NCBI GenBank assembly: GCA_963693365.1
Contig: CAVNZM010000006.1
Location: 10,667,355 to 10,731,354, forward strand
DNA length: 64,000 nucleotides
DNA from: Amoebidium appalachense
Lineage: Eukaryota > Protista > Ichthyosporea
Direction of reading: 5' to 3'
Part shown: positions 397 to 54,576 of the stretch, one piece after another
How the letters are laid out: the number at the start of each line of letters is the position of its first letter
Numbering within the stretch: position 1 is the stretch's first letter
The notes under the pieces: model-generated
The model's input: the letters and a program-made list of their open reading frames with translations, nothing else
Databases searched by the model: none
Told to the model about the DNA's origin: nothing
Program-made: the position numbers and the translations under genes

Positions 397-712
397 CCCC
401 TGCCCCTCCCCGTTTCGGAATCCTGCTTCCTGATGCGCCTGCTTGAAGCATAAGAAATTCGAACCAAGGGCCCTTCTTGTTCAGACCCCTAAAGTTGAGC
501 TTTGGTGCCTAAACACTCGGAAAGATAACCTGGATATATTGCTTACTGCACAAGTTTTAAGTAAAAAAGATGGCGGAATTTTGTGATGACAGACAGGTCA
601 AAGCTTTATGAAATGCAGATCTTTGGATATATTTGTGGTGGTGTTGGAGGGCCCTGAGAGAAGCGGAGGGGAAGGGGGGAGGGGCGAGAGGAGTGTGTGA
701 CGTGTGCGTGTG

Positions 713-761
<49 letters not shown>

Positions 762-1519
762 TGTTTTGTATGGGCCTAAGGGAGCAGAGTGCACAGAGGT
801 TTCGTGTAAAACACGATCAACGCAATAAAGAGAGGGCAATCGGAGTTGTTCACGACACTTGAAAGATTTCAAACAACAACTCACCTTTTATTGTGCTCTC
901 GGGTCTTTTGTACTTGCAACTTAACATCTTATCTCAACTAAAAGAAGAGAACCAATCGGTTCTATCAGATGATAGAAAAACACATTCCAACAGAGCATAC
1001 GCATTCCAACTTCCGACATAACTGAAATTTAGAACCTCTTAATAAAAGTTAAGTAACTATACATCTTGTCACCGTAATACACATATATATTTATACTCGT
1101 CTCTATAAAGAAACCCCGGCTAAATACATATATTTCCTAATAGTCGACACTCTCAAAGTGAAGACACATTACGATAAACCGAATTCCAAACCGTTTCTAT
1201 TGTGTCCAATCATAACACGTATATTAATAGACAGGAATGCACAACACGATCTATGTGCTATAGATGTACTCACTCGCGTCTATTGGTGAGTCATCCTATT
1301 GTGAACTAAAACTAAACTACCTTGAACTAAAACAAAGACAACGAATATAGCTAGCCAATCACGCTACTTCTCAGATAAACAGAGGAGAGCAAACACAGAA
1401 AAAATACAATAAGTTCTATCAGGCAAGAGAGCCAGGTGTGCACAGATCTACAGATATCTGTGTCTGTGCACACAGAAACAAGGGAGAGAGAGAGATACAA
1501 GGGGGGGGGGGGGGGGGGG

Positions 1520-1563
<44 letters not shown>

Positions 1564-1696
1564 AGAAAAGGGAGAGAGGGGGAGAGCACAAAGAAGGAGA
1601 GCAGACACGAACACAAACAAAGCTAAGACACATACATACTTCAAGACTCTTGCTGTCCTACGTAGTGACGGCGTATTCCAACAGTGTGTCTGCGAG

Positions 1697-1750
<54 letters not shown>

Positions 1751-1980
1751 CGAAGCACCCGATGACGTGCATACATGCAGTATACAGCGAATGTTTCTTT
1801 ATTTAATCCCGTAAGGATACCATACATACTACTACATACATGTTAGAATTGGTGTTTAAAAACCAGACATCTGCCCGAAATATGCGTGCTGTGCTGTGTC
1901 GTGCCAGTTCTCAATTGTGCACGTGCCGTACAAATTCACTATTGACTGTGACCACATTCATTCTAATACGGTGCATCTAA

Positions 1981-2553
1981 CTATAAGCTCATAAATCTAG
2001 CTGCCAAGCCCTCATACCAGCCCTTGAACGTCTGGGACGACTGCAGTGCGCAGAACTTCCACTGGTTCCCCTGGCATGCCGCCGGGGACGTGTACAGGGT
2101 CTGCCCACACCCAGCAGACACGCACTTCCACGCCGACGCATCGGCTGTCAGCGCACACGAGAATTCACACCACATGGGGTTTTTGATGGTGCTGCCGTAT
2201 GCCCTGAGCATGAAGCAGGGGGAGTTGTCCACTGGCCCTGTGACGGGCTCTGCGCCAGGGCTGGCCTGCCACCAGTTCTAAAACGAGTCTGCGGCGTTGT
2301 TTGTGCCGCATGGCTGCCCGGTGACGGTCTGGCAGTCCAGTGAGGACGAGAATGGCTGCGCGTCGGAAGAGGAACATTGCACACCGGCACCCTGTGCGTT
2401 TGTGAGGTCGCAGTTGTAGCTGGTGTCCTATAGGTGGGGTAGGGGTCCTGCAGGGAGAAGGGCACACTGGCGGAGCCGGGTGGAGAGGGAGGCACACGTG
2501 GCCGTGCTGGCGAGGGCGGCAAGGGCGGCGGAGGCAAAGACTGTGCGTGCCAT
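1981..2553 (-). pseudogene. Cys-rich secreted protein ORF (190 codons plus final stop) interrupted by two in-frame TAG codons
   Basis: aaaATGg at 2553 opens MARTVFASAALAALASTATCA (signal-peptide-like). The same frame continues through TAG at 2428-2430 and TAG near 2278-2280 to the stop at 1981. It has two internal Cys repeats (YNCDLT..VQCSS..QPFSSSLDCQ..SF*NWW and FSCALT..WKCVS..QTLYTSPAACQ..TFKGWY), is GC-rich and has no intron. Confidence 0.6.
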
Positions 2554-2716
2554 TTTGAATATAGGAGCTGTTGTAAGGTAGGAGACTCGTATAGATAGAT
2601 TGACGTGTGGACTGAACTGAACCGCTCTGGCTTCCTTTGCTTATGTACTCAAAATGTTATCAATACTGACGTTTAATTGGTGAATGAGCTGCAAACAAAT
2701 CCGGAAAAAACTACCC

Positions 2717-3075
2717 AACGTAAAGGTACTACGGTGATATTAATTATCATGCACATACATAGTAGCAAAAGGGGAATTGTGTTCGACCTACAAAGGTGTG
2801 TTTTTGCCGTGGGACCCTGATACTCTAGGAGCACAATCCCCATCCCCCCTCAATACTTTGTGGGTAGTATCTCGTGCCATAAGCTGTTATGTGGGTATTA
2901 ATAGAAAAAAACAATAACGTAAAGGTACTACTGTGATATTAACATGCACATACATAGTGGCAAAAGGGGAATTGTTGTTCGACCTACAAAAGGTGTGTTT
3001 TTGCCGTTTGACCCTGATACTTTAGGGACACAATCCCCACCCTATCCGACTAGGTTGTAGGGATATAACGTGCCA
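2717..3075. repeat. Diverged direct duplication, ~160-bp unit, ~200-bp period
   Basis: aacgtaaaggtactac.gtgatattaa...catgcacatacatagt.gcaaaaggggaattgt...gaccctgatact...cgtgcca occurs at 2717-2879 and 2916-3075. Confidence 0.9.
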
Positions 3076-4017
3076 CCGTGCATAACAGTCCCCTCGCGTT
3101 GGCATGTTATTGATAACAAATTTAAATACCCTGGCCTTTTTCTGATCAATGCATAATAAATTTAATTTAAATATGCACTAGCTTTTTTTTAGTACTACTA
3201 TCAACATGATTATCGTTAGACTTGTACTCTGTGTTACACTCCGGTTGCACGTTACTGATCTGCACCGCACTACTTTATTACGCATGTGTGTGTGCGCGCG
3301 CGCGTGCGCGTGTGCGCGTGCGTGTGTGTGGGTGTGTGCACGCGTGTATAATGCAAGTTTGTGCCACGGTGTGTATGTACAAATATGTGTGTTTGTGTGT
3401 GTGCGGGCGCGTGTATGTAACATATGCTGTGGACAGTCATTTGATGTATGCAGAATCTAATGTTCAAGCCGACATGCATCCGACAGCACGATGCTTTCTA
3501 ATGATATGTTTGTGCTGTGTATGTGCCACATGTACACGTGGTTGACATGAGCAGTAGGGTACATGTACAGTCGCGGAGCGCTGGGACAAAGTTTTTTAGG
3601 CGACCTGATTTAAAAAAAAAAAAACACACCTCATTGGCCCAACGTTTTGTAAAATATATTTTAAGAAAGAGGGGGTATTGGTATGGTCCGGTGAACAGGG
3701 GGGTGCGGCATGCCAGGAGCTACTACTAGAGAGAAGGGGGGGGTATGATTGGAGGGGGGGGTGTTCAGCTAACCTTATATGGATAAAGCAAAGTTACAAG
3801 GATTCAAGCCATTGGTTGGGCAAGACCCCTTTTGCCGAATATGGATAACAGATCATACACTGCTGTAGGCGGCGGTCAGGAATTGGCGCGCTCTTTACTG
3901 GTCACAACCAGTCCGGGAAGGCCATGAGCAGCATTGCCGAGCACACTGGAATACGGGAATGTTTGCGGTAACGTAGTCGCACTAGGGGGGCAGGGGGCCA
4001 GGCCCCAAGTGTTTAAA

Positions 4018-5412
4018 ATGAAGCCAGGCTGCCCTAAGGGCACAACACAGCGCCCTGGGCATAAAACAGGCGGAGCTAGGGAGGGAGCTGGGCGCAAAAA
4101 AAAAGATGCTGCATTTGTTCAGCCTTTAGCGAACTTTGCAGGTTTTGGGACGGCAAACAAAGCTGTTTTGCAGGAACTAAACGTAAACGTACAACCCGAA
4201 CAGCCCCCTCTATCTAAGGCCGCCGACATAAGGGCCCGTGTAGTTGAGGCAGGTAGCGTCCATTCGTTACCAAGAGAAATGGATCGGGCCCCTGCTCCAC
4301 ACCCACCAGACATACAGGTGCAACCCGACGAGGAACCTTTGCTAAATGCAGCAGCAGATGCGTACCGGGTAGACGAGGATGAAGGGGAGGAAGAGGGAGA
4401 AGATAATACGGACGGGGATGACGGTGGAGAGGAGTTTTCTGACGCGGCGGGCGAAACAATCAAGTCGCACCTGCACACAGTGAAAGAGAGTCTCAAAGAT
4501 GAGAAGACGCCTGTGGGGTGGCATCTTCCACCTCCCATTATAGGCTTTAAATTTGGGGGCGATCCAGCGCCTTTCTACAAACCCAGATGTTTTGCCTGGC
4601 TTCCGGAAAGGTTGTCTCCCGGTTTCATGGTGCCGTGCCCCTTCGATGATCACTACGTGGACCCCCACAACCACCCCAACCCACACCGTACTTCTCGCAA
4701 TGGGTTCATGAGCAACCCCGTAGGACGGCGTGTTATCGACTTTGACAGCTGCTACTACATTATCACGGCCCGGTACTTTTGTGACACATGCAAAAAAAAC
4801 TTTGCCGGCACAAACCCCCAGACAATTAAACGCCTTCCACTCTTCATGCGTGATCAGTTTCCGGCCTACCTTAGCCACCGCAGTGGGCTCGACCTAAAGG
4901 TGGTAACATTGTTGCGTGCACTGGCAGACAAAGGTGTGGGCCCAAACGCCTTTGCCACCCTCCTCTCGGAGCTCCACAAGCAGCGATACGACGAGCAGCG
5001 GCTCCTGTATTACTCGAGGGCGCTGCATTGGACCAAGTATGAACTCAAAAAGCGTAACGATTTCCGCCCCCACGACCAGCGCCTGACAGAACTTCCCCCA
5101 GAGGAGCAGGCGGCTAAGTTCTCGGCGTTTGGTGACAAAAATGGTTACGCTGGACATGTGCCTTCAGGCAAGTGTGCACTGCATTTTGGGTGTGTAAATG
5201 GTCCCCATTGTTTTGTATGCACGTGCTTGGGCATTTTTTGGGTTGGCTTGGTAGGGTTTTGTCTTATTATTTTTTATTTTTTTTTTAGGGGGGGGGGGGG
5301 GGACTTGGAAATGGGTTTTGGAAGTGTGGTCAATAAGTTTCTATTATGGTGGTGGTGGATGTGTGGTGGTGGATGTGCGCCTGTGAGTGTGCGTGTACTT
5401 GTGGGTCCGTGT

Positions 5413-5443
<31 letters not shown>

Positions 5444-5526
5444 GGGGAGGGGGGGAGGGGGACATGGTGATGGATTAGGTGGTGGTGGTGGCAATCAGTC
5501 ATGGTGGTGGTGGTGGTGGTGGTGGT

Positions 5527-5560
<34 letters not shown>

Positions 5561-5709
5561 GGGCAGAGGGATCATCAGAGGGGTGAAAGCATAACGGTCC
5601 ATGTACCAGTGAGTGTGCTTGGGAAATCGTGGAGAACTGTTATGCCTGAAATTAGATGGTGGGTGTGCGCATGTGTGTCTGTGTGTGTTGGGGGAAAGGA
5701 GGTGGAGAG

Positions 5710-5751
<42 letters not shown>

Positions 5752-5937
5752 GGGGGCACATGGTGGTAGACTGGATCTTGGTGGCGGTACTTAATGGTTA
5801 TTATAGTAGTGGCAGGAGGGTGTGGGGGGAAGGGCAAACGGACGTGCAGGGGACAAACTGCAGATGGGGCACAAAGGGGAAAGAAGGTGAAAGTTGGTGC
5901 AATGACTTGGAGGGTTTGCGCGCGCCGGGAGGCGGGG

Positions 5938-5973
<36 letters not shown>

Positions 5974-6407
5974 AACGGCCGGAGATGGGTGTGTAGCGTT
6001 TTTGAGATGGGAAAAGCCATACAGACTTACGAAAATACAGAGAGGTGAGATGAACACGAGGGACTAGAGGGAATGGGGGGGATGGTCCTGATGGGAGGGT
6101 GGTGGAGTTCTAACAGTACTTGGGGTTCAGGCAAATACCTGAGTGCCGTGTATACTGAGTTCAGCGACCGCACGGCAAAGTACCAGAGCCTGGACACGCA
6201 GCTCAAGCCCGTAAACAACGTGCTCAAGGCCGACCACACCTTCCAAATTGGGAAGCTCACCGGCATCAATGGGGAGCCTCTGTACCGAGGCCTATGGACT
6301 TGTGTAAACGAGCTTGGCGGTGTGTGGTCCCTCCTCTTCTCCCCCCCCTCCCCCCACTCTCCCCCAGGCCCCCTTCCCCCCCCCTCCCCCCCCCCCACAC
6401 ACGCCCA

Positions 6408-6438
<31 letters not shown>

Positions 6439-6696
6439 ACACGCCCCCTCCCCCCCCTCCCCCCCCCTCCCCCCTCTAGGGCCTTTAAATCTCTTAGGCT
6501 CCACATTTAATGAGGTGGCACACTGTGAGTAGAGGTTTGTAGTATGTGGGTTTTGGGGACAATTCTTGCCCTGTCGAGCAAAAACTAGGAAGCTCCAGAT
6601 ATGTGTGTATGTGTTTTTGCTGGGTAGAGATTGGGGTGGGCTGGGGTGGAGCTTTCTTTTGGCGGGGGAATCGGGGGGGGGGGGGGGGGGGGGGGG

Positions 6697-6732
<36 letters not shown>

Positions 6733-8223
6733 AGCTTCTGCCAAGCAGAATGGGAGTAGGGGCCAGTGATTGCAAGGGATGCAGGGGGGGGGGGGGGGGG
6801 GGAGAGACACCACCGTCGGGGTTGAAGGTAGAGAGGGCAAGAGGCCCGGGGTGGGGTGGGGGGGGGGGGGGGGGACAGTAGGTGCCATATGGAGGGCTGT
6901 CCCATGGTTTGGGGGGAGGGGGAGTGGGGAAGGATCGTGGGCACATGGGTTTGGGGGGAAGGCAGAGAGGGGGAAAGGATTGTGATCACAAGGGTTTAGG
7001 GGGAGGAAGGGGGAAGGATTGTAGGTACATGGGTTTAGGGGGGGGGGGGGGGGGGAAGATTTTGGGGGAAAGGGAGGCCTGGGGAAAGTATGTGGGCACA
7101 TGGGTTTGGGGGGAAGGAGGGGGAAGGGTTTTGGGGGAGAGGGAGGGGAAAGTATGTGGGCACATGGGTTTGGGGGGAGGGAGGGGGAAAGGATTGTGTG
7201 GGCACTGAAGTCTCGTGAAGGGCCATGTGGTAAGGGAAGCTAGAACATGCATGGCTGCTCGGAGATGCCCTCTCACACAGTGCGGCACCCCAGAGATCCG
7301 GGCGCAGGTATTTACACGGGACTGCAGCCACCAGGAGATTGAGCCCGTGATCCAGCGCATCTCTGCCACCACGGCGGCGCTCAACAGCAAGGGCCCGGCC
7401 TTCTTCTACACAGATCGGTGCTGCCAAGACCGGGCGTTTGTTGAGCGCATGTTTCCAACCCTAGCCCGGCCAAAATGCCCCGTCCGTCTGAACGAGGCTG
7501 CGCTGGTAAGCGTGACGGACGGTCTGCCTGGGCTGGAGCTGCCGGCCAACTACCCTAAGCCGGTGTACACCGACTGCCAGGGGGCGGTGGTGGCTACAGC
7601 GGCCATTCGTGCCGACCTGGAGGGGCAGCAGCACCGCGTGGTGGGGCTGGACTGCGAGTGGGTCTATCGGGTGGGCCAGGCGCGGTCCAAGGTTTGCACG
7701 CTGCAGATTGCCACCGCACGGGCCGTGTACATCTTCCACTTGGCACGCATGGGCCCCAACCACAGCCCGCCCGCGCGGCTGGTGGACGAGCTGATTGCGC
7801 TGCTTAGGGACCCCAGCATCATCAAGGTGGGCAAGCAGATCGGCACGGACTCGGCCCACCTCAACAAGGACTACGGCACCCCTGTGGCCAGCTATCTGGA
7901 GCTGGGCCGGTTCTGCTATGCCCGTGCAGCTATCACCTCTGCGGCCCGGGGCTTGGCCGACATCACTGCCCAGGTCATAGGCAAGAAGCTGCCCAAGCCG
8001 GCACTTGTTCGATGCTCCAACTGGCACGAGCCGCTATCAGAGGTGCAGGCCACCTACGCTGCCCTTGATGCATATGCGTCCCTGCAGGTCTACTCGGCCG
8101 TGGTCGATAGGCCAAACCTGTCAGGTGTGTATCCCACCTGCTTTTTGCCCCAGTGCTTATGTGCTTATGCCAGATATAGAAAGATTGTGGGCCCCCCAGA
8201 GGAGGAGGGGGAGGGGGAGGGGG

Positions 8224-8268
<45 letters not shown>

Positions 8269-10056
8269 GGCTGACCACATGGGCCAGTGTTCCAGTTGTG
8301 TTATTCTGGGTGTCGGGTGGCTATCAAAGGAGGGGGTGATTGGTGGTGGTGGTGGTGGTGGTGGGGGGGGGGGGGGGGGGGGGGGGGGGCTATAGCACTG
8401 TTAACACGTGCAAGTGCCACACAAGCTGGGCACTGGGAGAGGGGGGGGGGGGAGGGAGAAGGGGGGGGGGGGGGGGGGGGGGGGAAGGGGGGTTGCTAAG
8501 GAATATGCATTTGATTTTTGTGGAGCGAAGAGAAAAACGTTGGTGCTGTGGCTTTTTGGCTGAGTTTTTTGCTTCCCTCTATGACATGCAGCGCGGCTTC
8601 ATGCAAAGGCACTCGGTGAAGGGGTTGAGATTGTGCCCCGGCGGGGCCCACATGCTGCAGCAGCCACCGGGGTGGTGCTGGCTGTGCAGCCGGAGCGCTG
8701 GGGGGGCATGAAGGTGGGCAAGAAGCATGCAGTGGTGCGGGTGGATCAGGTGCTGTCGCCGGCCATGCAGGTGCCCTTTGGCCCCGACAAGGGCAAGACC
8801 CTGGGAGAGCTGGGCCCGCCGCCCTTTGAGCTGATGGTGCACCTGCAGTGGCTACGGCCCATTCAGCCCCCACCGGACCCAGGTGCCGAGGTGCCGGTGG
8901 TCCCTGACCCAGCCCCTCCCCCTGCCAGTCCTCCCCCTGCCGAGCAGCAGCAACCCCCTTGCCGGCCCACAGGCACCCCCCCAGGACCCCCAGGCAGCCC
9001 CGGGGGGCCTTGAGGCAGCCCCAGGGGGACCCGAGGCAGCTCCCAGAGAGGGCATGTTGGGCCAGGCACCGCCTGGGGAGGTGGTGTGGCAGACTGTGCT
9101 GAATGACGCCTTCCACTCCATTGCAAACACGGCGGACGGCACGTACAAGTCACACCCCCGCAGGGCTGAGTACGCACGCGCACTCAGCGAGGCAATATTT
9201 GTGTGGAATGAAGAGGATTACGGACATGTGAAGGTGCCCCCCCCCCCTCCCCCCCCCCCCCCAAAATAAAAAATAAAAAATAAAAATAAAAAAAACGGCA
9301 ACAACAACATGCGTGACTGACGCGCACACACACATACACTCGTTAGCACACACTCACCATTCCACCCACAACCATGCACACCTTCGACAAAACTTCTGAG
9401 GGAAGAGAGAGAGCCTGAGCCTCAGAGAGAGGGGGGGCAAGGGGGGGGGGGGGGGGGGGGGGGGGGAGGGGGGGGGAGGGGGGGGAGGAGAGTGGGGGTT
9501 ATTCATATGCCTAGAGAGAAATAATGTAGGGTTGTGGGGGGAAATAGCCACATGCATTTTTTACTTGTGTTGGGGGAGAAGATGGGGGGGGTGGAGGGGA
9601 GGGGTCCTACAATAACGGCAGGTATCAAAGTCTACCAAACCCAAATTGCAGTGTGCGTAGTAAATTAATATTGGCATCCTGCCTCACAGGGGGTGCTGGA
9701 GCAGAAGGGCATCGACATTGAAACCGAGCTCAAGGGCGGCGACCTGAGCTACTTCATGGAGCGCATCCGGCGGGTTATTCCCGACCCATACACGCTGGTC
9801 TCGCGGCTGGTGGAGTTCAAAAACACCTACAAGGATGTGCCGCCCGGACCGGATGGCAAGCCTCTGTTCAAGAAGGATGGCTTTGAAAGACTCGAGGCAA
9901 CATCCCCCCCCCCCCCCCCCCCCTCCCCTGCAGGCGCCCAACAACTCCACCACCACAGAAAAGATTCTTCGCTTATTTGTCATCCTTGGTTCATCTGCAC
10001 ACACACGCACACCCTAGCCTCCCCCCCCCCCCCCCCCCTCCCCCCCCCCCAAACAT

Positions 10057-10130
<74 letters not shown>

Positions 10131-10202
10131 CCCGCACGGCCCTTGCTGCCTAGCCAGTTGTTTTTTGCCTTTCCCTGCTCGTTTTTTTCCTTAGCAACCC
10201 CA

Positions 10203-10241
<39 letters not shown>

Positions 10242-11924
10242 ACCACACACACACACACACATACACACACACTACCACCACCACCACCCACCCATCTCTC
10301 TGATGTTTGCTTGTGCCCCCACAGTCGCTGCTCGAACACGCCCAAAATGGCTGTCTGTCGGACCCCCCCCGGCCTGCCCCTCTACTACGAGACCACTGCC
10401 GACGCAGATGGGCTCATGCGCTACCGCTGCATCCGGGGCACCAACGAGGTGGAGGGGGCAGTGCACAACCCCCTGGCCACCCACTTTGGGGCCACACGCA
10501 TGTCGCTGCGCCTGCTGGACGCCACCATGTCCAATAGGCGCCACCGCCACAACCTGCGTGCACACTACCGCAACCGCCTGGGCCAGGCATCGGGGCCCCC
10601 CCACTACAGCCCCTGGATTGTTGACGACATGGAGGCACTGGCGCTGATGCTGTACGGCCATCACCTCGACCCCCAGTGGGTACCCGTAGGCTGCTACAAG
10701 CTACCGGAGGAGTACTTCAACTTTGCCCCGCTCTCCTGTGTGGCCAATGCCCCGGCGCAGGAGCCAGTTGCGGTGCCCGCACCCCCACCTCCGTCTGATA
10801 ACATCGAGCCTGCAGCCAATGGCGTGATGGGCGGGCCAGAGGACTGTGAGGTCGAGGAGGGTGACGGTGCTGCCATGGGGGGGGGCAACCAGGTGGCGCG
10901 TGGTGCACCACAGCCGGACCCTGCACTGAGGGGCGACTACAAGTTCCTGGCGCAGAAGCAACATGTGGCCATCCCCTTCCTTCCGGTGCTTACCCCTCAG
11001 GAGCGCAAGCTATTCAGCACGCTGCTCCTGGGCACCTACAAGGCACATGCAAAGCCCAACGGCCAGCTGTTCGAGGCTTTGGCCCAAGACTTCAACAAGG
11101 CTGCCTCTGTGGCTGGGGGAATCTACATGAAGGATGCGGCCTACATCAAGAAGCATTTCGACAAGTGGAAGACCTGGCAGACGGCACATGCACAGCGCTC
11201 CACACACGAGGGCCTGGCAGATCACCGCAAGCGTATGCGCGAGGAGAGGGCAGACGCTGTGCCAGCAACCATACGGCCTGCCCCCTTGCCACCCCTCCCT
11301 GTTCCAGACGGTGTCGATGCAGGGGCGCAGCGTGAGCGGCCCTTGCCCATGCTAGTGGGCAAAAAGCATCGCAACATTGGCCCTGAGGGGCCCCTGCAGA
11401 TGGATTTGCCGGTGCCCCCTCCTATGCAGCCACCCCAGAGAGCCCCCAAGACCTGCAAGACGTGTGGCCGCCAGGGCAAGGGCTGCCCCGGCTCCAATCG
11501 GGCCAAGAGCTGCCCACGTTGGGTTGCAGCCAATCAGGATGCCATGCCACCAGCACCCGCGCTTGACATGCAGCAGGGCCATGTGCCGCACATGCCCCCT
11601 GCACCCCATCCAGGCCCGCACCACCCACATGGCTGGCCCCCACCGTGGGGCATCATGCCGCCTCAGCCCGGCCCTGCCTTCCCCATGCCTGGGCTACTGC
11701 CGCAGCACGGTCCCCATCCTTACTTGGGCCATGTGGGCCAGCCCTCGGCTGGTGGGCAGTTCCCACCCCCTTCTCGTGCATCTGCTGTGCTGGGCCTGGC
11801 GTTGCCACCTGCTGGAGAGACGCAGCTGCAATGGCACGATCGAAAGCAAAGTAATCGTGGCCGCAAGTCTGCAGGCAGCCAATCAGGATCTCAGAGTAGT
11901 CAGAGTAGCCAAACTAGTGTCTAA
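4018..11924 (+). CDS. ~1538-aa DUF6729-like / MULE-type DDE transposase-like protein with an inserted DEDDy (WRN/EXD2-like) 3'-5' exonuclease and a C-terminal zinc knuckle
   Basis: Exons 4018-5167, 6131-6319, 7294-8124, 8592-9233, 9690-9896 and 10325-11924 join in phase; introns 1 and 5 are GC-AG. Motifs: GGAREGAGRKKK; CPF..GRRVIDFDSCYYIITARYFCDTC..FPAYLSHRSGLD; LKADHTF (D1); FYTDRCC (D2); exonuclease VGLDCEW / GTDSAHL / YAALDA; LNDAFH (DxxH); GCLSDPPGLPLY; RGTNEVEG (E); CKTC..GC..C. The model needs two single-base removals in homopolymer runs (~8950-9010 and 10363-10370). Confidence 0.8.
6900..7206. repeat. G-rich minisatellite (~45-bp unit, about 6 degenerate copies) in intron 2 of the transposase-like gene
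   Basis: Recurring gggcacatgggtttggggggaagg...gggaaaggattgt / gggaaagtatgt. Confidence 0.8.
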
Positions 11925-12003
11925 TATTGGAATGTACACCAATGTAACGGATCTCATATGTGTTGTAGTGCTTCAAGTTATACCTGTTCTTCGTACAGTC
12001 ATG

Positions 12004-12050
<47 letters not shown>

Positions 12051-12376
12051 CTAGCTTTCATTCCGAAGTTTACTGTAAAGAATTAAAATTTAGAATCTGA
12101 GTAATAGTACAGAGCCTTTGCACTTTTCTCTGTTTGTTAGGAATTCTTTGTGATCGAGAGTATGGTGTGTTAGACTATTGGTGTTAATGTGTCCTGGAAG
12201 GTGTATAATGTCTGCTGGCCGTAGTCAGTATCTATTTTTAGGTATATAGTATATTTTTAAATGTTGGCCGCTGGCCAATAAATAGCAAATAATAAACACA
12301 CGATAAAGTCAACAGCGTGCCAAAAAACTAATCCCCAGCGAGCGCACCCAGTGATGTGTGTGTGTGTGTGTGTGTC

Positions 12377-12444
<68 letters not shown>

Positions 12445-13757
12445 CGCGCGCGTGCGTGCGTGTGTGTGTGTGTGTGTGTGCGTGCGTGCGTGCGTGTGTG
12501 CGTGTGTGCGTGTGTGCGTGTGTGTGTGTGAGTGTGTGTGTGTGTGTGTGTATGTGTGGTGTGGTGTGTGCGCGGCTTGTACATATGTACGTGTTCATGT
12601 GCACCTGTGTCGGACCTACGAAGTACATGAAAGTAAATTTTGACAGCATCGATCTGCCGGTGTGTATGTGTATGTGTGCCAGTGCAGCAGGTGTGCCTTG
12701 TAACTGATAGCTTCGCATTTTACGTGTGTGTATATATAGTAGTACGCATAGACACTTGCTGATCATTCGGATCGACATTAATATTTAATCTGTCGGTCCT
12801 CGGTTTTTTGAGTGAATGATGATCAAGTGTAAGAGCATTCACTTGGCAAGTATTAATGTTGCAGAGGCTAGCTGCAGCTGCAAGCGTCGGATGCACACTG
12901 ACAATTGTCTTTTCAGCGAGTCTAACCTGCAGGCAGCAGCTGCACACATATAGGGTTGTTATCTTGCGGCACATGCACGGTGATCATTTCAGAGTAATAG
13001 AGTTCAGAGCAATGAAAATAATGAAAATAACTAAACTTTGTGACTACTTTAAAGTTGCTGAGATCATACGTGGTGCAAGCTGCACTATGAACACATGTAT
13101 AGTGCTAGTAATTAATACATTTTTGTTGCCTTCTGCAGGGTTATCGTAGCTACGTCACGGCCTGCACTCAGGGGGGGAGGGGGGGGGGGAGAGGGGGGAT
13201 GATTCGAAGGGGGTATAAATAAGAACATGCACCTAAAGGTCTTTCCCGTGGATCCTCCCCCCCCCCCCCCACCTCTCCCTCCCCCGGGGCCCCATACTAT
13301 GATATCTAGGCCCAATATTATATGCCCCCTTCCCCCCCCCCCCCCCCTCCTCTCCGGATCCCCGGACCCCACTTCCCTACCCGGAGGCTCAAGAGCTCCC
13401 CCCTTCCCCTTCCCCCCTCCCCCCCCCCCCCCCCAAGGCTTACGGGGGCCCTTCTTCATCGAGGGGGAGGGGGTGGGGGTGGGGGGGGTGGGGGGAGGGG
13501 GTGGGGGGGAGGGAAGTGGAAGGCGGGGGTGGATGCATGTCAGCCTAGGTGAATTCAATTGTTTAACTCCAGTGTGCAGGACTGGTCTGAAGGCTTAAGA
13601 AAACAACGAGGAAATGGGGTCCAGTGGAGGTGGTGGTGGTGTTCTGTGTGTGTGTGTACACGTGCACGTATGTGTGTGGTTTTTTTAAGGGGTGAGTGGT
13701 GGTGGTGGTGGTGGTGGTGGTCACCGTGGTGGTGGTGTGTGTGTCTGGTGTGTGTGT

Positions 13758-13802
<45 letters not shown>

Positions 13803-14718
13803 TAGAAAGAAAAACTGCTCGTGGGTCACTGTTTTTCGTCACTGTATTTGTAACGGGCCGCTCATATTTATATAACTACTTTAATTTAAGTACACGTGTT
13901 CATTATCATATACGATGGCCAAATATAGAAATTTTGGCGTCGAAGTTCTTGGAGCTAAAAAAACGTTTAAAAGGGGGAAATAATAGCTTGGCCCCAAATT
14001 TACCTTGCCGTTTTTAGCGAATGTATTTTTTATTCATGAGTTCTAGTGATTCAGTGAGTGCACGTGCCTGCCTCAGGCTGATCATGACAACTGCAACACA
14101 CCATTCCTACATGGATATCAACCAAAAGAAAATAGTATATACTGTGGTGGTCTCCTAAACCTTGTGCGGCATGCGCATACATGATATTACAGTGACGCAT
14201 GTGCATATTATTGTTCTGTACACCGGAGTGTGCCGGTGCACGTGGCTGTTTTGTGCACATGTTACAATAGCAGCACGATCTCCCTAAACTCCATGTTTAC
14301 AAATCCCTCACCCTGGCTCTGCCTTGTCGGTGCTCCAAAACACACATACAAATCCCCCTAGACTCAGTGCCTGCACATGGTCGCATTCACGTGCAGGTCA
14401 CGTGACACATGCGATGCCATACTGCCGTCTACAGCAACAACCACGGCAGCATGTATACCGGCCCAGCACGAGATATACTTATCGGCAGCCCACTGAACTC
14501 GCCCATTTTCTCTTTTTCATGTATGTCCCTCCTTTTTTGTAAAATCACCCTTTTTGGCCTCCCGGTAGTGGATTTTGCAGGATTTGACTTCTTTGAGGTC
14601 CAAAAACCTCAAATTTTCCCCGGCGGGGCCGGGGAGGGAGAATTCAAAAATTGCCCGCTCCTGATATGGTACCCGGGCCGGTGAACACATGATCTGTGTC
14701 ACTGAAAAAGACTTCAGG

Positions 14719-14782
14719 CGAAGCACGGCCATCTAGAGACTCGAAGCACGGCCATCTAGAGACTCGTCTCTAGATGGCCGTG
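14719..14782. repeat. 23-bp tandem duplication fused to a perfect 17-bp-arm hairpin
   Basis: cgaagcacggccatctagagact occurs twice (14719-14764); cacggccatctagagac-tc-gtctctagatggccgtg spans 14747-14782. Confidence 0.95.
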
Positions 14783-16517
14783 GGCAGAAGCCAAAAACCT
14801 TTTTTCAGAGGGCCGTGCAAAAACACAACACCGTACAATGCCGTATCATACAAGACAGACAAGACAGAAAAAGCAGCCTACGCATACCTTGCTGGCTCCC
14901 TCCAAGTTGAGTTGGACTCCAAAAACTTATGATGCCATCATACATATGCGTGTATTGTGGGACTATTCGGGTCACCGTGATAAATATACAAAAATATAAC
15001 TGTTTAGCCCCTGCATGCAAGGATCCTTACTTCACAATTTATCCCTTGGCTTCAAAATGCCCCTTCTCGGGCCTTGCCCCATAACCGGCCCAGGCTGGCA
15101 GGGGCGCCCCGGCCCCCCCGCCCTCCCAGCCTCCCCAAAACCCCAGCCCCCCCCCCCCCCCCCCCCCCCCCCCCCCTTCCTTTCCTCCGGCCCTGAGGCT
15201 CGTCCTCTGTCATAACTGTGAAATTTGGAAAGATCAGTTAAACCTGTAATCCCTTCGAAATTTCACCCCCTGATCGCTGCTTCTTACTACGACGTCGACA
15301 GCCCCATATGCATCCTTTTCCACCCATTTGCATGCGTGTACAATCTTTTCAATGTCCCATTCAGCGCTTAATACGTGGGCTCCCTTCCCTCGAGCTCATA
15401 TTCCCTCTCAACTTAAATTAAATAGTACTAATATGTACATACAAACCTTTGTCGGACTGGGAAGGCTCGCGATGGTAAAGGAATTGCTCGAATATCAGTA
15501 CCAGTCCATGAATGTGTATCGTGCTCTACATCTTTTTGCCCCTTGCACCATACCTGCATCTCACAGGCTGGTTACTTCGTTCCAAACAGCCGGCATGTGC
15601 AGGTACAACGTTGCACTCGGCAGGGCCCTGTGGTGTAGCCCTACTGTTGTGCTACCTCCATATTGTTCGACTTTTGTTCCATTATAGGCCCTGGCCAAAA
15701 ATTTCAATGCGGTAGAACACGTGCATGCATAATGACCCATTTCGTATACCGTGTCGAGGTTTATACTAATCTAGGCAATGGTGCAGCCCAAAAAATTTAC
15801 TGCAATTCGGAACTTATAATGAACGCACATGTGGCACTTAAAACGGTTGCCATGTTCGGTGCTCGCAGTGTTGGAAGCGCCACAGCACTGCCGGTGCCTG
15901 CCGCAATTTTTTTCTAAATATGCAATGGTAAATAATACACTGACTAAGTAACAGGGCAGTGTTGTGGCACAATATGGCATGCCCTCTTTCCATCTTGTGG
16001 CCTAGTGGGTGCAACAATACTTCGCATGCCCAAATACCAAATACCATACTGTACATACGTAACTTATACCCAAAGCCTGGTGATGTTATACGCCATCATG
16101 TTAACCCTGAGTCTAAAATACAAATCAAATCACTTTCATTTAGTAGATAAACAGCTGCTTAGTGGCGGCCTCAGAGCCTCCAACCACCCAGCACATGCCA
16201 TACGGTAGCTACTTCCACCTTTCCAGCAACTTAACTGCCAATATGCAGTGCTTTTGGGTGCTGAAATAAATAGACGTGTTTTCAGCCTGCATCCACTGTG
16301 ACAGGTCAATATTGCAATATAAATATTTCCTTGTCTTATCCCTGTCTGCTTTAAAAACGCGACTCTGGTCACCGTGTATCAAATTCAGAAAGAACCCTTG
16401 TGAGCACCCCCCCCCCCCCCCCCCCCCCCCTCACCCCCTCCCTCCCCCCCCCCCCTCCCCTCCCTCCCCCCACACCACCAAAAAAAAAAAGAAAGAAAAG
16501 AAAAAAAAGAAAGAAAG

Positions 16518-17150: not shown

Positions 17151-17880
17151 GGGCACCGGAACCACTACTTGTGAGGTCAATCGTGTGGGTTTCCACACAG
17201 ATCCAAGGGGGGAAATTCTATGTATGGAGAAAACAGGTTAAATGCAGGAGACGGATGAGGAAGGTGCAAAGAGGATAGCCGGGGACGCGCCCAAAATTTG
17301 TGTGTGTGTGTGTTGGGGGGGGGGGGGGGGGGGGGGGAGGGGGGGGGGGATTTGAATGCGGAACACAGTACGAAGTACGCATACACGATGAGAAGTATGG
17401 TGCAGGACACATGCAAAGGCAAACATTCAAGTATGCAACATCAGCCATGCGCACAGTATGCGTCATAAGCAGAGCCCATCCTCAGGGAGGGCCCAAGTCA
17501 TCAATTGCGTCTGAGTTTCGACCCCTTAGCCCGCGTATATACGACGCTCCAACTCAGACAGCAGCATCAACTGAACTTGGGTGGGTCAACCCGTCTTGAT
17601 CAAAGACGAGCAGGGTTGCTTATGCAAGCAAGGTGAGCAGAACGGTGAAGATGTGTGTGCAAACTAATGCAGTGCAACGAAAAACGCGTATGTGCTTACA
17701 GATGCACGACACAGAGCAACCATGCCCGGTTGCATGGAAGTAAAGATGTCTGGAGGGGGGGGGGGGGGGTTAAAGTACGAAGTAAACATTCATGACGGAC
17801 AACATAATACAAATTGCAAAGCAGACACAAGAATATGATAAGAGCCCGTCCTCGAAGGAAGGAAGGGGGAAAAGGGGCCG

Positions 17881-25394: not shown

Positions 25395-26396
25395 CTATGA
25401 ATCATCAAAAGTTCTCCAAATTCGATGGGATCCCCCCTGCTGATCGAATAATAACATCGTGTGTGCCTCGCTGCCTGCTTGGCTCCCAACCTCGTCTCTC
25501 GTGTCCGATTTCTCTTTTTCCGACCCCTGCCGAGGGGACGTTTCACTGGCGGGACGACCAGGAGATAGGGACATAGGCCGTAAATACGGCATCTTAGCGG
25601 GGGAGGACGACAATTCCTGGCCGGGTTGTGTGTATTTCTGGGGGGAGGTTGCTTCTAACTGTTCGGGCATGTCTTGCCGTTTTGTGGGTGGTACGTTGGG
25701 TGCATGTGTGTCGTACGTCAGTGCCGGACCTATGTTGAGTGCCCGGCCCAGTTCCTCCTCGGCCTTCCATGCCGGCTTGCTGCCTGGGTAGTCGGCCAGC
25801 TGGGGGGGCTGCAGCATCATGGGTGGGCCGGTGGGGTAGCCGGCCTGCATGTGTGCCTCGCCTGGGTGGTGTGCCATGGCTATGGGCGGTGCAGTCCACA
25901 TCTGTGCCTGCTGTGTGTTTGGTGTCTGTGTGGGCCCCTGTGGGCTCCCTTGGGGTGGGGGTCGTTGTCCTGTTAGAAATGGTACCATGGGCGGGTATGG
26001 GTGCTGGTGTGACTGCGGTGTTTGTGGTGTCTGCGGTGGTGGCCCGGACTGGGATGCAAGGTGTGGCGAGGGAAAGCCAAATGCAGCCGGGGGTTGTGGG
26101 GCCTCGGCTTGTGTGCTGGGTGCCGATGGGGGGTAGGGGGCCAGCCCGGGCGATGTGGTGCGACTGGGGGGAGTCTGGGGACTGTGGGCAAGGGGGGGTA
26201 TGCCGAGACTTTGTCCGCTGTACGGCCTGCTGTGGGGCACACCGTCAGTAGATATGAGCGTACAGGGGGTGTCAGTGAAGATCAGTGGGTGCACTAAGGA
26301 GATCGTGCTCTCTGGGTAGGGGAGACTGTGTCCTTTTGCCAACATGGAGAAAATATCTTTGCCTAATTATTATTGTTATCATCATCATCGACATTC

Positions 26397-26435
<39 letters not shown>

Positions 26436-28540
26436 TTTCTTTTTTTTTTTTGGAGGTCGGGGGGAAGGGAGGGAAATGGGGAGTTGCTTGGGGGAACAAA
26501 CGGTTGCAAAAGGGATAGAGCGCAGGGGGGATGGGGGGGAGGGGGGAACTGGGATGAGGAGACGGATACCCTTCAAGCGGCTCAGACGGGGCAGTCCCAA
26601 GCACAGCGGGGGCACTTGGGGGCTGGGCAATGAACGGCTGGTATGTGGGTACCCCGGGGCCGTACGGCGCAGGTAAATTGGGGGGCGGCCATGAATAGAC
26701 CCCCGCAGGGTGACCTGTGGGGACCATGATGCCGGGCACTGTGGGGTACATGGGGGCCAGGAGGGGCTTGCTCGTGGCCATGGCCCCCCCCAGTGTGCTT
26801 AGCCCGGGGGGAAGGCCGGAGGGGCCGGGCTGAGAGCTCCCGGACATTGTGCGTGGTTTCTGAGGCATCCGTCGTATATGGGCAAGAAGGTCCGGATGGT
26901 TGCGCTGGAAGTGCGGATGGCGAAAGATGTTGGGGTGCTTGCGCCCAAAATGCTTGTAGCCGTTGACCTGGGGGGGTGGCTGGGTGAGATTTCCGTGCAT
27001 GGTTGGTGCATGTTGTGCACAGCTGCAATTGCTGTGTCCGCATCGAACCTACTCTAGGCTCTGATCCATATGGGTAGCCGTAAAATAGCGTGCGACAAGA
27101 GTTGGAAAAACACATATCCATTGTTTTAATTTTCACTATGAAGCTCTCCCAAAAACCCTAGCTCTCGAAAACTGCAGTGCAAATCAGACCTCTGAGGTGC
27201 TCGGCGTGGATATGTTTCATTTTATAGCAGATATCCCGCATCTTGATAACAAGGATCGATAAAAGTCCGCATATAGCAACTGCATCAAACACAGAGGAAG
27301 TTTCCATACATGAGCTTGATAAATGCAAGTATATACATATGCACACACCCACCTGCCCTATCCACATACACCCACACGTCACCACAAAAGAGCCAAAGCC
27401 AAACGGATAGGGATGACACAAGAACACACAGAATCGTACACTCGAAAATAATGCCGTTTGACGACAAAAACAATACACGACCGAGCAGTGATATGGCTTT
27501 CACACCAAATGATGCCTTTAACTGCCTGCAAGCCCAGAAGTCATGACATGACTCCGGAACCAACACACACACAATATGGGGCTAAAAATTGGGCGCCAAA
27601 ATGAGTTGTGAATGTGACACTTGATTGTGGAATGCTATCTTCGAGATTTTGGCAGACTGCATGGCCGTACCGTTCGTGAAATCACGATCGCTGAGCTATG
27701 CAGTCGAAATGTTATGACCAAACAGACCAATAAATGTGAGTTTCAACGTAGATGAATGGTCAAAGTCTTCAGCTGATGACGCCACTGAAAACCACATAAA
27801 TTAGCTTTGAAGCGATACGAAATCGAACATTAAATTTTTAGCTCACTGCTTTTATGAAACGGAAACGCGGGTGTGTTAAAAAAAAAAAGACACTTACACG
27901 GTAGGAAAAGGAACAGGACATGAAACTAAGTGAATTGCTCTCAGCGACCCATAGTATTGCCACACACTGTGACACTTCACAAACAGCACAGCGCCACAAA
28001 AGTCGACACACAATATGCACAATGCTTCACACCACGCATAAAAATCACACGTGCGTGTAATCCACACACACACACACACGAGCAGACGTGACACGGACAT
28101 GCACGCTCGTGCAACATGCACATGCATGGCACGCTCGTGCAACATGCACATGCATGCAGCTGTTACAAAACATGCTGCAATGTGAACTGGCAATGAAGCA
28201 CCGTGCCCCAAAAGACAAACACACAACCTTAGCACAAATGCACAACCGAAGAGCCCCGCGCGCACACACACACACTGAAACAACAAACGTGAACATGTAC
28301 CTTGTTGAAGCCGTACATGTTGAGCTGCCTCACAAACGAGGTGTAGTTGCTCGTTTTGAACACGCTGTTGGCGCGCCCAAGGACGCGCTGAGTAAACACA
28401 TCTGTGTCTGGAATGACAACGCACGAGCCATCTGGGGACCACGTTATTGCATCGGAGTAGCTGGCATCGCTGACGAGGGCATGAAGCTTGAGGATGAACG
28501 TCGGGGTGCTGCTCTCTAGGATGAAGTGATGTGTACTCAT
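25395..28540 (-). CDS. HSF-type DNA-binding-domain transcription factor, 490 aa, 3 exons
   Basis: Exons 28540-28301, 26967-26570 and 26229-25395 total 1473 nt, in frame. HSF signature FILKLHALVSD..AITWSPDG..FKTSNYTSFVRQLNMYGFNK|V..FRHPHFQRNHPDLLAHIRR, with the intron at the position typical of HSF genes. Pro/Gln-rich tail. Confidence 0.9.
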
Positions 28541-46608: not shown

Positions 46609-47542
46609 CGCACACACACACACACACACATACACATCTACAACAGGAAACACCATACTCGCCTTTGATTTCTATCGATGCTGAGCTCTGCCCATATATC
46701 GTTCCGGTGGTTTTTTTCCTTTTTGCAAAACTTCTAACATCCTGCACCGTGTTGTCCTGTGCGTCTTTGTACCCTGTAGTTTGTTTTCTCTTTAAAGCTC
46801 CCTCTACCTTCAATATCCCCTATGCGACACTCACGTTGCCCTTTCTCAACCACTATCACAAACTTCGGAACACACTGTCCTGTTGCAACAGCTACCTTAC
46901 TCATCCCTTTCACACTCTTCCCTTTCCCTGCATCACTTGAGATAACCCGAGTTCTGCCCCTTTGCTACCTCCCCTTAATCATTTCAACGGCTGTTTTCCT
47001 TTAACCCATAATTGTTTGCCACACCATGGGGTGATACCCCATAGTTGCTTGCCACGACAAATATTTCTGCTTTCTACCGCTGGTCTTTATCACAGCCCAC
47101 TTGGCGCCTGCACACGCCTGCAACTCTCTATGTATCCACTTTTTAGCACTTCCCTTTCCCGTGGCCACTTTCTCTGACTTCCCTTTGCCCCCCCCCCCCC
47201 CACCCTCCCTCGTTACCTGCTCACCTTACCTATCCAATCCCCCCTCCCCCCCCCCCCCCCCCCCCCCCCCCCTCCCCCTCTCTTCTCCCTGCAGCACCAC
47301 GGTCTGGGCTTGCCTGGAAGCACCATCTGGACACTGGTGCAGGAGTCATTGATGCCGACTACCGAGGAAACGTGGGGGTGGTCATGTTTAACCACGCAGA
47401 CACAGAGTTTGCAGGTGGGTGTTGGCTTCTATCGCGCTATGTCTCTTGTTGCTTGTGTTTGTGCAGTACGCATTATCTGGTGCTGCTGTTTCATGCATGT
47501 AAGCGCAGATGCTCCACGCCCCTCCCCCTTCCCCCCCCCCCC

Positions 47543-47573
<31 letters not shown>

Positions 47574-48705
47574 GGGGCCACACACACACACACCCAAACA
47601 CACTTCTGGGTGTCGTGGATGTCTCTAGAAATTTAAATTGCTTTCATCTAGCAACCCCCGTCCACAAATATCAACCAGCTTGTGCACTCCATTTTCTGCA
47701 TCAATAGTGTCCCTGGATTGCATCAGGATTCTGACACCCCCATCTGCATATCTGCATGGAACACCACTTTTCGAGTGCTTCTTCCTTTCCAATTGACCTT
47801 TTGCTGCAGTCACCCCTTTCCCATCCTCCACCCCCCGACCCTCTCTCTCCCTTTCTCCTCCCCCTTCCCCCCTCCCCTCCCCCCTCTCTCTTTCCCTCCC
47901 CTGGCCTACAGCCCCCTCTCGCCCTTCCTCTTCCTCGTCCTGTCGCTGCCCCCTCCCCTCCTCCCTCCCTCCCCCCCCCCCCCCCCCCCCTCCCCGCCTT
48001 TGCCTTTTCCTTTACCCCGAACTATGCACTGACTTGTGCCGTTGCAGTCAAGAAAGGTGACCGCATAGCGCAGCTGATTTTGGAGAGGATCTACATGCTG
48101 GACATCGAGAATGTGGAGGTGTGTATTTCAAACCCTGTGGTCCGTGCATAAGATGGCTGTGCAGACAAAAAGCTCTGCTTCCCTCACACACCGCTTCCTC
48201 CTCCCTACCTTCCACTGTTCTTGTCCACCCCGTCTCCCCTCCTCCTCCCCCCCTTCCCCTCGTCCCCATCCTTTATTCTGGCTCCGAAGCTGTGTGCCTA
48301 ACCTCCCCCCCCCCCGCGGGCATGGTTGCTCTGTGTCGTGCATCTGTAAGCACATACGCATTTTTCGCTGCACTGCATTAGTTTGCACACACATATTCAC
48401 CGTTTTGCTCACCTTGCTTGCATAAGCAACCCTGCTCGTCTTTGATCAAGACGGGTTGACCCTCCCAAGTTCAGTTGATGCTGCTGTCTGAGTTGGAGAG
48501 TCGTATATACGCGGGCTAAGGGGTCGAAACTCAATCGCAATTGATGACTTGGGCCCTCCCTGAGGATGGGCTCTGCTTATGACACATACTGTGCGCATGG
48601 CTATGTTGCATACTTGAATGTTTGCCTTTGCATGTGTCCTTCGTGTATGCGTACTTCGTACCGTGTTCCGCATTCAAACCCCCCCCCCCCCCCCCCACCC
48701 CATCC

Positions 48706-53723: not shown

Positions 53724-54576
53724 CTAGACTCTGACAAAAGCCTGTGCGGCTGTGGCCGGCACCTCATCGCCAAACAAGACACTGCCGGGCCGCACGAGGT
53801 CAAGCCGGGCCTTGGGCACGGCCAGCGTGGCGTAGGAGCTCGCAGCGTGCAGCAGCAGCACGCTGCGGTCCAGCCCGCCCTCGCGCACGAGCCACTTGCT
53901 GTCCTTGACAAACCTCGCCAGCCCGCCCACCACGGCAGGCTTGTCCTCGGCGGCAAAGTGCGTCATGATGCCGGCCACGCTCAGCCCCGGCAGCTCGAGC
54001 ATGGCCAGGGCGTCGGCCCTGCCCTCCTCGCTGCCCACATCCAGCCACCTCCGCATGCCGCCCGACGAGAGCGCCACGTGCACAGGGACGGTGCTGTTGT
54101 GCCGTTGCGCCGTGTCCGACACCTCCTGGGCCACAGCCAGGCTGGTCACAAGCTCGTCCACACGGAGCCCCAGCGCAGACTCCACCTCGGCCGCGGTGGC
54201 GGGGCGAAGGCGAATGATGCGGCCGGTGAAGTTGCCGTCACGCACGGCCTGTGCCTCCGCGTTGGTGGCCACACCCACACAGGGGATGTCTGCGGCAAGG
54301 ATGGCCGGCAGCACAACCTCGATGCCCCACCCATAGGCGTTGTGCTTGAGGGCCGGGCAAATCTGTGGGCCAGCCTCGCCTAGAATGTCTTTGAGCGTGT
54401 CGATGTTCTGCCCGAATGCAGTGACTTTGGGCTGCAGGCTGGGGGCCACCGACGGAGGGGGTGGGGGCGGAGCTGGAAGCAGTGGGCGCAGCAAAGGCGG
54501 CAGTGGCGGCCAAGGCAAGGCCGAGCACGGCGGGGAGGAGGGCGCCGAAGGATCTGGAAGCACTGGAGCGGGTCAT
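53724..54576 (-). CDS. Secreted alanine-racemase-family (Bsr-like) N-terminal PLP-barrel protein, copy 1, with an apparent +1 frameshift in a C-run
   Basis: gccaccATG at 54576; signal peptide ending AAFA-AP; ICPALKHNAYG, GVATNAEA, VHVALSSGGM, GIMTHF, LHAASS, LDLVRPGSVLFGD. The G5 run at 54457-54461 has one more base than in copy 2. TATA at 54707-54714 and CCAAT at 54736-54740. Confidence 0.8.

Follow-up and report, generated by a model that had tools for sequence, protein, structure and literature searches.

Can a DNA transposase carry a complete 3'-5' exonuclease inside its own catalytic core and, if so, to what kind of element would it belong and what would the second enzyme do? This question is raised by a gene of Amoebidium appalachense, a protist relative of the animals, located on the forward strand of contig CAVNZM010000006.1 (assembly GCA_963693365.1) at positions 4018-11924 of a stretch of 64,000 nucleotides (the window; all coordinates are positions in it). 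An initial reading of the DNA letters (the original prediction) had assigned the gene to a poorly described transposon lineage of Mutator type, or to a domesticated derivative. The data presented here support a transposase of the DDE type and C/DxxH group whose predicted RNase H core contains an intact DEDDy exonuclease. In our interpretation the gene is expressed and encodes a Dada superfamily transposase equipped with an exonuclease, likely from an autonomous DNA transposon, and the exonuclease likely trims free 3' DNA ends during the jump; the probability of this reading is roughly 65%. The layout was already in print for Dada in 2013 (PMC3706591), so at the superfamily level the transposon is one already described. 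The Amoebidium protein is an additional, intact, transcribed and deep-branching ichthyosporean member. Statements about published work, cited by PMC number, refer to the accessible portions of each paper.

Gene structure and transcripts

The gene structure was obtained by reading window positions 2500-13500 together with a three-frame translation. It has six exons, all on the forward strand. Exon 1 (4018-5167) contains the start codon, a basic, AT-hook-like GGxRxGAGRK motif (4069-4098), an acidic linker and the DUF6729 region, and is followed by a GC-AG intron (intron 1, 5168-6130). The first catalytic aspartate, D418 (6232-6234), is in exon 2 (6131-6319), along with a conserved NExG strand. 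Exon 3 (7294-8124) encodes the second aspartate, D487 (7413-7415), and then the entire WRN/EXD2-like DEDDy exonuclease (7650-8069). A predicted beta-rich segment, a Pro-rich disordered linker and the DxxH motif (D895-H898; 9105-9116) are located in exon 4 (8592-9233), and the helical insertion domain in exon 5 (9690-9896). Exon 6 (10325-11924) has the SDPP and GTNxxE motifs with E1049 (10452-10454), a Myb-like segment, a CCCC knuckle, a Pro-rich tail and the stop codon. The five introns are 428-974 bp long and have AG acceptors throughout, with GC donors in introns 1 and 5 and GT donors in the other three.

A sequence search with residues 1-280 of the last-exon frame found a protein with 100% identity in EukProt. 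It belongs to a cluster of 18 members, and the 15 listed are labelled Amoebidium parasiticum. One transcriptome protein of A. parasiticum in this cluster, P0014, has 1538 residues; it is reproduced exactly by the joined exons when these are read in three frame segments (residues 1-845, 846-1021 and 1022-1538). An assembled transcript thus shows the gene to be spliced and expressed. The spliced protein of 1538 residues in the original prediction is identical to P0014, but it had been obtained by silently correcting two extra bases of the window, each of them one base beyond what P0014 allows. Both extra bases are single-base gains within runs of C (8954-8958 and 10363-10370), in a region where long homopolymers are abundant. 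As written, the joined exons have 4619 nucleotides, which is not a multiple of three, and terminate at residue 864. Once the two frame changes are set aside, the window and P0014 agree at all 1538 residues.

Several other isoforms are present among the transcripts. An alternative GT donor at 5190, 22 nucleotides downstream of the weak GC donor of intron 1, gives a product of 399 residues (P0019) with the N-terminal region only, which on a speculative view could act as a repressor. Another variant has an indel of five residues. In a further one, a non-canonical join from 9695 to 10816 removes the catalytic glutamate, and the product resembles an internally deleted derivative. The last two are weak hints at more than one template, and either of them could be an assembly artefact.

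Active sites, domains and predicted fold

The motifs of P0014 are found in the order D418, D487, exonuclease, D895-x-x-H898 and E1049, as had been proposed. One correction concerns the last of them: the conserved acid of the GTNEVEG motif is its second glutamate, E1049, which is Glu in 63 of 64 aligned proteins, and E1047 is not conserved. The exonuclease had been described as complete and located between the second Asp and DxxH, and both points hold. Its five residues (D566, E568, D632, Y701 and D705) are intact and situated between D487 and D895, and its nearest solved proteins by sequence are WRN (expectation value (E) 5.7e-17) and EXD2 (E 4.2e-15).

Pfam recognizes two domains only in P0014, DUF6729 (residues 155-342, exon 1; E 1.8e-18) and DNA_pol_A_exo1 (residues 557-715, exon 3; E 2.7e-15). 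The first agrees with the Cys domain of the original prediction. It contains the putative zinc-finger ligands C207, C255 and C258, and the second ligand position is occupied by H212, where the homologues have Cys; three further His residues are close to H212. The segment of about 90 residues after the exonuclease, predicted to be β-rich, is common to the homologues. The zinc knuckle at the C terminus is also as described, and consists of C1383, C1386, C1393 and C1402 (11454-11513). Its third ligand is Cys, as compared to the printed CCHC type, and the last spacing (x8) is identical. Among 56 long homologues, 28 have a CCCC and 3 a CCHC knuckle. The helical segment named Myb-like (roughly 10995-11213) is a confident three-helix element in the model, but its assignment is less firm, as the matches to Myb/SANT domains, from the model of a homologue (P0179, residues 677-748), are weak (Z 4.3-4.8).

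No MULE family was found in Pfam scans of seven exon pieces and eight full proteins, a weak match to a ZSWIM RNase H-like domain was seen in one homologue (E 0.009), and a search of the Protein Data Bank (PDB) with a profile of the core returned 0 matches. A lead to Mutator was obtained at a cosine of 0.83. An identity as KDZ/Zisupton was dropped, with CxC5/KDZ leads (cosine 0.79) as its only indication.

The fold of the core was modelled with AlphaFold, using isoform P0010 (18 intron-derived residues followed by residues 383-1538 of P0014; model numbering is that of P0014 minus 364) and an alignment of 75 sequences. The mean predicted local distance difference test score (pLDDT) is 74, and the predicted template modelling score is 0.66. 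The secondary structure elements of the model follow the RNase H order. D418 is on strand 1, and two strands and a helix lead to D487, which ends strand 4. An insert of 408 residues is found next, followed by strand 5, DxxH, the helical domain and E1049 on a helix.

The model was compared with 48,161 chains using VIA-align. The top match is the mouse WRN exonuclease, with a Z score of 27.8 and a root-mean-square deviation (rmsd) of 1.7 for 184 aligned residues, and the next exonuclease fold has a Z score of 20.3. The best match other than an exonuclease is the transposase ISCth4 (Z 13.8, rmsd 4.1, 248 residues aligned). This alignment covers model residues 10-728 and hence both sides of the insert, in agreement with the proposal of an RNase H fold that carries the exonuclease as an insertion. 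For P0179, a natural exonuclease-less homologue from Apophysomyces (pLDDT 76.5), the top two matches are ISCth4 (Z 11.4) and the P element (Z 8.4), followed by integrases, Transib, Hermes, Mu and RAG1. With Foldseek, the matches listed for the full P0010 model are exonucleases only, and ISCth4 was first for the P0179 model, with an E value (1.3e-3) above the 0.001 threshold. The models thus predict an RNase H core of IS256/Mutator type, with the exonuclease just ahead of the helical insertion domain associated with DxxH.

ISCth4, of the IS256 family (PDB 6xg8; PMC7780238), and Mutator/MULE transposases share this RNase H core and a helical insertion domain with C/DxxH. The spacing between the first two aspartates of ISCth4 is 66 residues, and it is the nearest solved fold for both models, although the identity is just 11-12%. 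ISCth4 differs in its terminal inverted repeats, none of which were detected around the Amoebidium gene, and in the absence of an exonuclease. The WRN and EXD2 structures (PDB 2e6l, 2fbt and 6k17) have the same DEDDy active site and fold as the exonuclease of P0014. The P0014 exonuclease is fused within a transposase core, whereas WRN-type domains are otherwise found on a RecQ helicase or standing alone.

Kinship with the Dada transposons

Dada is a superfamily of DDE transposases with a DxxH motif, related to MuDR, hAT, P, Kolobok and IS256 (PMC3706591). A DEDDy 3'-5' exonuclease between the second Asp and DxxH has been described there for Dada-1_LB and Dada-2_LB of Laccaria bicolor and Dada-1_ES of Ectocarpus siliculosus. 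These three families share with the Amoebidium gene the placement of the exonuclease, all the catalytic residues, the Cys finger, the knuckle, introns and names without a target gene. In fungi, 1,023 Dada elements have been counted in 4 phyla (PMC5751038).

A motif scan of 176 proteins identified P0153 as the closest to Dada-1_LB. Comparison by eye with Dada-1_LB as printed in Fig. S1 of PMC3706591 shows identity at 66 of the first 99 residues of its exonuclease. P0153 is in turn collinear with P0014 from the zinc finger to past the catalytic Glu (970 columns, 26% identical, E 4e-81), and provides the link from P0014 to the three exonuclease-bearing families. The finger of P0153 is complete (C185, C190, C222 and C225), and its spacings (C-x4-C, C-x2-C, 136 residues to the first Asp and 70 between the two Asp residues) agree with those printed for Dada-U6_DR (C-x4-C, C-x2-C, 135 and 68; PMC3706591). 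The same series of motifs (CIDGTKK, VLNEWG and YADNNCC) can also be recognized by eye in the DNA of a fish Dada-5S element (supplement of PMC8869645). Based on the homology of P0014 with P0153, the likeness of the P0153 and Dada-1_LB exonucleases, and the matching spacings, P0014 probably belongs to the Dada superfamily, by an indirect but tight chain.

DUF6729 is likely the N-terminal zinc-finger region of Dada, as it spans the part of the protein to which PMC3706591 gives that name. ESM Atlas clusters for this region (Chordata and Basidiomycota, at 0.94-0.97) are rich in DUF6729 and mostly chordate or basidiomycete, which fits the range of Dada, and a search with residues 150-510 for fish Dada proteins returned the self cluster only. 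The term DUF6729 was not found in the literature searched, and the Pfam family can now be tied to this part of Dada.

Several features set P0014 apart from the known exonuclease-bearing members. Its host is an ichthyosporean, a group absent from the hosts in Table 1 of PMC3706591, and exonuclease-bearing Dada is extended here to this group. P0014 is about 26% identical to its nearest relatives and has its own long branch, its second finger ligand is His rather than Cys, and its knuckle is of the CCCC type instead of the printed CCHC. Among the literature matches listed, none combines Amoebidium, transposon and Dada, though Repbase, subscription journals or supplements may list one; the main text of PMC11244446 makes no mention of Dada.

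Animal Dada elements, which target U6, U1, 5S and tRNA genes (PMC3706591, PMC8869645), share with P0014 the spacing of 68-70 residues between the first two aspartates, the DxxH motif and the finger spacing. Like the Amoebidium gene, they are intron-rich; they have no terminal inverted repeats, and none were detected at the Amoebidium gene. In contrast, they have no exonuclease, and the second Asp and the Glu are separated by 176 residues in Dada-U6_DR and by 562 in P0014. A second group of C/DxxH transposons, KolobokD, likewise carries a 3'-5' exonuclease of DnaQ fold, proposed to act on transposition intermediates (PMC9587614). However, that exonuclease is DEDDh and TREX/ERI1-like, and Kolobok produces TTAA duplications, whereas the P0014 exonuclease is DEDDy and WRN-like.

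The core profile, built from six exonuclease-bearing sequences and running from just before DxxH onward with the exonuclease excluded, matched 4078 representatives at E ≤ 0.001 and 982 at 1e-30. The best 150 of the 4078 supplied the homologue set, and these best matches lean to the exonuclease-bearing branch because all the seeds carry the exonuclease. Together with 8 first matches, 148 new proteins gave 156 homologues. Those of 900-2100 residues (63) were aligned with P0014, and the other 93, nearly all shorter pieces, were left out. The first Asp through the Glu is covered by 57 of the 64 aligned proteins. The D, D, DxxH, E series is kept in 55 of these 57, the exonuclease D, E, D, Y, D in 53, and both active sites in 52. 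The exonuclease-bearing clade is large, and its named relatives include agarics, rust-relative yeasts, Mucorales and one diatom.

The two enzymes have similar trees. With FastTree and 52 proteins, the exonuclease tree reproduces 20 of the 26 supported splits of the transposase tree, the transposase tree reproduces 18 of the 19 supported splits of the exonuclease tree, and there is one supported conflict. As judged from these sequences, the agreement shows long joint inheritance of the exonuclease and the transposase, and is not a measure of function.

Role of the exonuclease and competing explanations

By analogy with other C/DxxH enzymes (PMC7780238), the DDE site would cut and join DNA with the assistance of DxxH. 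The zinc finger (DUF6729), the Myb-like bundle and the knuckle likely bind the element ends or the target. In related enzymes the insertion domain steers flanking and target DNA (PMC7780238). Because the exonuclease is predicted to be tethered at the entry to this domain, it likely trims 3' ends made in cis, with donor flanks, flaps or carried-over spacer bases as probable substrates. The transposon's own joining 3'-OH would be spared, since eating that end would abort integration. A role in end processing was already proposed for the Dada exonuclease by Kojima and Jurka in 2013 (PMC3706591); for that function, P0014 offers a full-length sequence that is verified by a transcript and in which neither active site is disrupted.

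A more specific route can be suggested, though we consider it doubtful. The end-to-end junctions produced by ISCth4 contain spacers of 6-8 bp derived from the flank (PMC7780238). Animal Dada shows one-ended events and the replacement of six target bases by carried flank (PMC3706591, PMC8869645), and no target is known for the exonuclease branch. On these grounds exonuclease-bearing Dada might be a large, eukaryote-wide branch that moves asymmetrically in the manner of IS256: an attack by one end on the flank adjoining the other would carry over donor bases, which the exonuclease then trims. If so, this branch would not be bound to small-RNA targets as animal Dada is, and the replacement of six target bases by ancestral flank in the latter would represent the same step without trimming. 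The Amoebidium protein would then be the first holozoan member and a substrate for studying a transposase that processes its own ends.

A number of observations weigh against our interpretation of the gene as an active, exonuclease-bearing Dada transposase, and the alternatives are best considered with them. The window copy as written is frameshifted twice. It could be a recently broken Dada copy, with real extra bases and with the open transcript coming from a near-identical sister copy or allele. The stop at residue 864 and the hints at several templates from the indel isoform and the 9695-10816 join would suit this explanation. Two independent +1 insertions of C without any replacement are, however, less economical than base-calling errors. 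Assembly errors in the C runs are the likelier cause, and we regard a broken copy as unlikely.

Other observations concern the ends of the element. Dada elements lack terminal inverted repeats, produce 6-7 bp target-site duplications, and sit in tRNA, snRNA and 5S genes where their ends are known (PMC3706591, PMC8869645); the exonuclease-bearing families are also named without a target gene (PMC3706591). In the Amoebidium window, no termini or target-site duplication were identified. ARAGORN found 0 tRNA genes, and the Rfam matches for the flanks (400-4100 and 11900-16400) include no tRNA, spliceosomal snRNA or 5S. Over the entire window Rfam gave 223 matches, and the 150 listed are of low complexity, almost all miRNA families, and all below the gathering score. 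A scan for a pol III box and the published target motifs found none, and a tRNA was not restored by any of 6082 excision joins made in silico, so the hallmark targeting of Dada is not seen. A repeat search and a masked self-BLAST of the window detected no terminal repeats. Inverted matches of at least 12 bp between 2500-4017 and 11925-14500, the flanks of an element whose ends are undefined, numbered 0 (0.2 expected), and inverted 10-mers between the flanks (10, as compared to about 3.7 expected) are scattered and not nested. MuDR/MULE elements have long terminal inverted repeats and 8-10 bp duplications; no long inverted repeat links the two flanks here.

Three repeats were noted in the window. 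A tandem duplicate of 140 bp (2705-2842 and 2906-3039, 88% identical) is located about 1 kb upstream of the start codon. Neither a further copy in the window nor a match in Rfam was found for it. It could be a subterminal repeat; its interpretation as a split target was rejected, as it has no downstream partner. A near-perfect palindrome of 36 bp (14747-14782) has a short direct duplicate immediately upstream (14724-14782 overall). A dispersed repeat of 286 bp (17443-17728 and 48317-48602, inverted, 97% alike) has a loose B-box word inside and is possibly a short mobile element.

The lack of termini and target, together with the single copy of the gene in the 64-kb window, the long branch of P0014 (24-28% identity to its 15 best BLAST relatives) and the spliced, transcribed gene with several isoforms, could also point to a domesticated, immobile host gene derived from Dada that keeps its nuclease activity, for example for DNA repair or genome rearrangement. 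Domesticated dDada proteins, however, have mutated Asp residues and DxxQ (PMC8869645), and P0014 has no such changes, its catalytic Asp residues and DxxH all being intact. The five introns, which the original prediction took as a sign of domestication, are no argument for it because introns are present in every Dada element other than those of Perkinsus, with 11 exons in Dada-U6_DR (PMC3706591). Transcripts are equally normal for Dada, and the absence of terminal inverted repeats is expected. Domestication is therefore improbable in our judgment.

The exonuclease is absent from three Apophysomyces proteins (P0167, P0179 and P0181), where D, D, DxxH and E are intact and just 12 residues separate the second Asp from DxxH. 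These gene models look fused or mis-spliced (two run into a long C-terminal part, with SH3 domains in P0181), and the absence may be a natural loss or a skipped exon, which they do not distinguish. As a further point, no bench test of the exonuclease activity was found in print, judged by titles and abstract openings since 2014. The exonuclease of a Dada transposase could instead act on RNA, as an anti-silencing activity (an option of the original prediction, next to end processing) that degrades the small RNAs of silencing or the precursors of these RNAs. Its structural neighbours include EXD2, Nibbler/MUT-7, RNase D and EXD1, and Amoebidium methylates its transposons (PMC11244446). On the other hand, the DNA exonuclease WRN is the closest both by sequence and by fold. 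The position of the domain, locked in the catalytic core, is better suited to processing DNA ends in cis than to an anti-silencing function, and fungi, a diatom and a holozoan have all retained the domain. An RNA substrate is thus very unlikely.

The link to Dada passes through a fungal-type intermediate and printed motifs rather than a direct alignment with a curated Repbase protein, the nearest solved fold is an IS256/Mutator-type enzyme and small-RNA targeting is not seen, but a separate, undescribed Mutator-related superfamily is scarcely tenable given the full-length collinearity with a Dada-1_LB-like protein, the matching spacings, the motif series of fish Dada-5S and the ties to MuDR and IS256 drawn in the 2013 paper itself (PMC3706591).

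Additional coding features are present elsewhere in the window. A frame at 26272-27048 (reverse strand) has no Pfam match at E 0.01, and contains what we take by eye to be a heat-shock-factor-like motif. Exons between 36500 and 45100 (reverse strand) encode a RING finger (E 0.001) and Cys-rich repeats, presumably NF-X1-like from their appearance. A dUTPase exon is located at 47147-47704 (forward strand; Pfam E 5.7e-11). A divergent pair of near-identical alanine-racemase-like genes is found at 53727-54572 (reverse strand) and 55247-56371 (forward strand; Pfam Ala_racemase_N, E 3e-38), with arms of 776 nucleotides that are 97% complementary. A hydrophobic leader is visible by eye, and the product is possibly a secreted racemase of bacterial origin.

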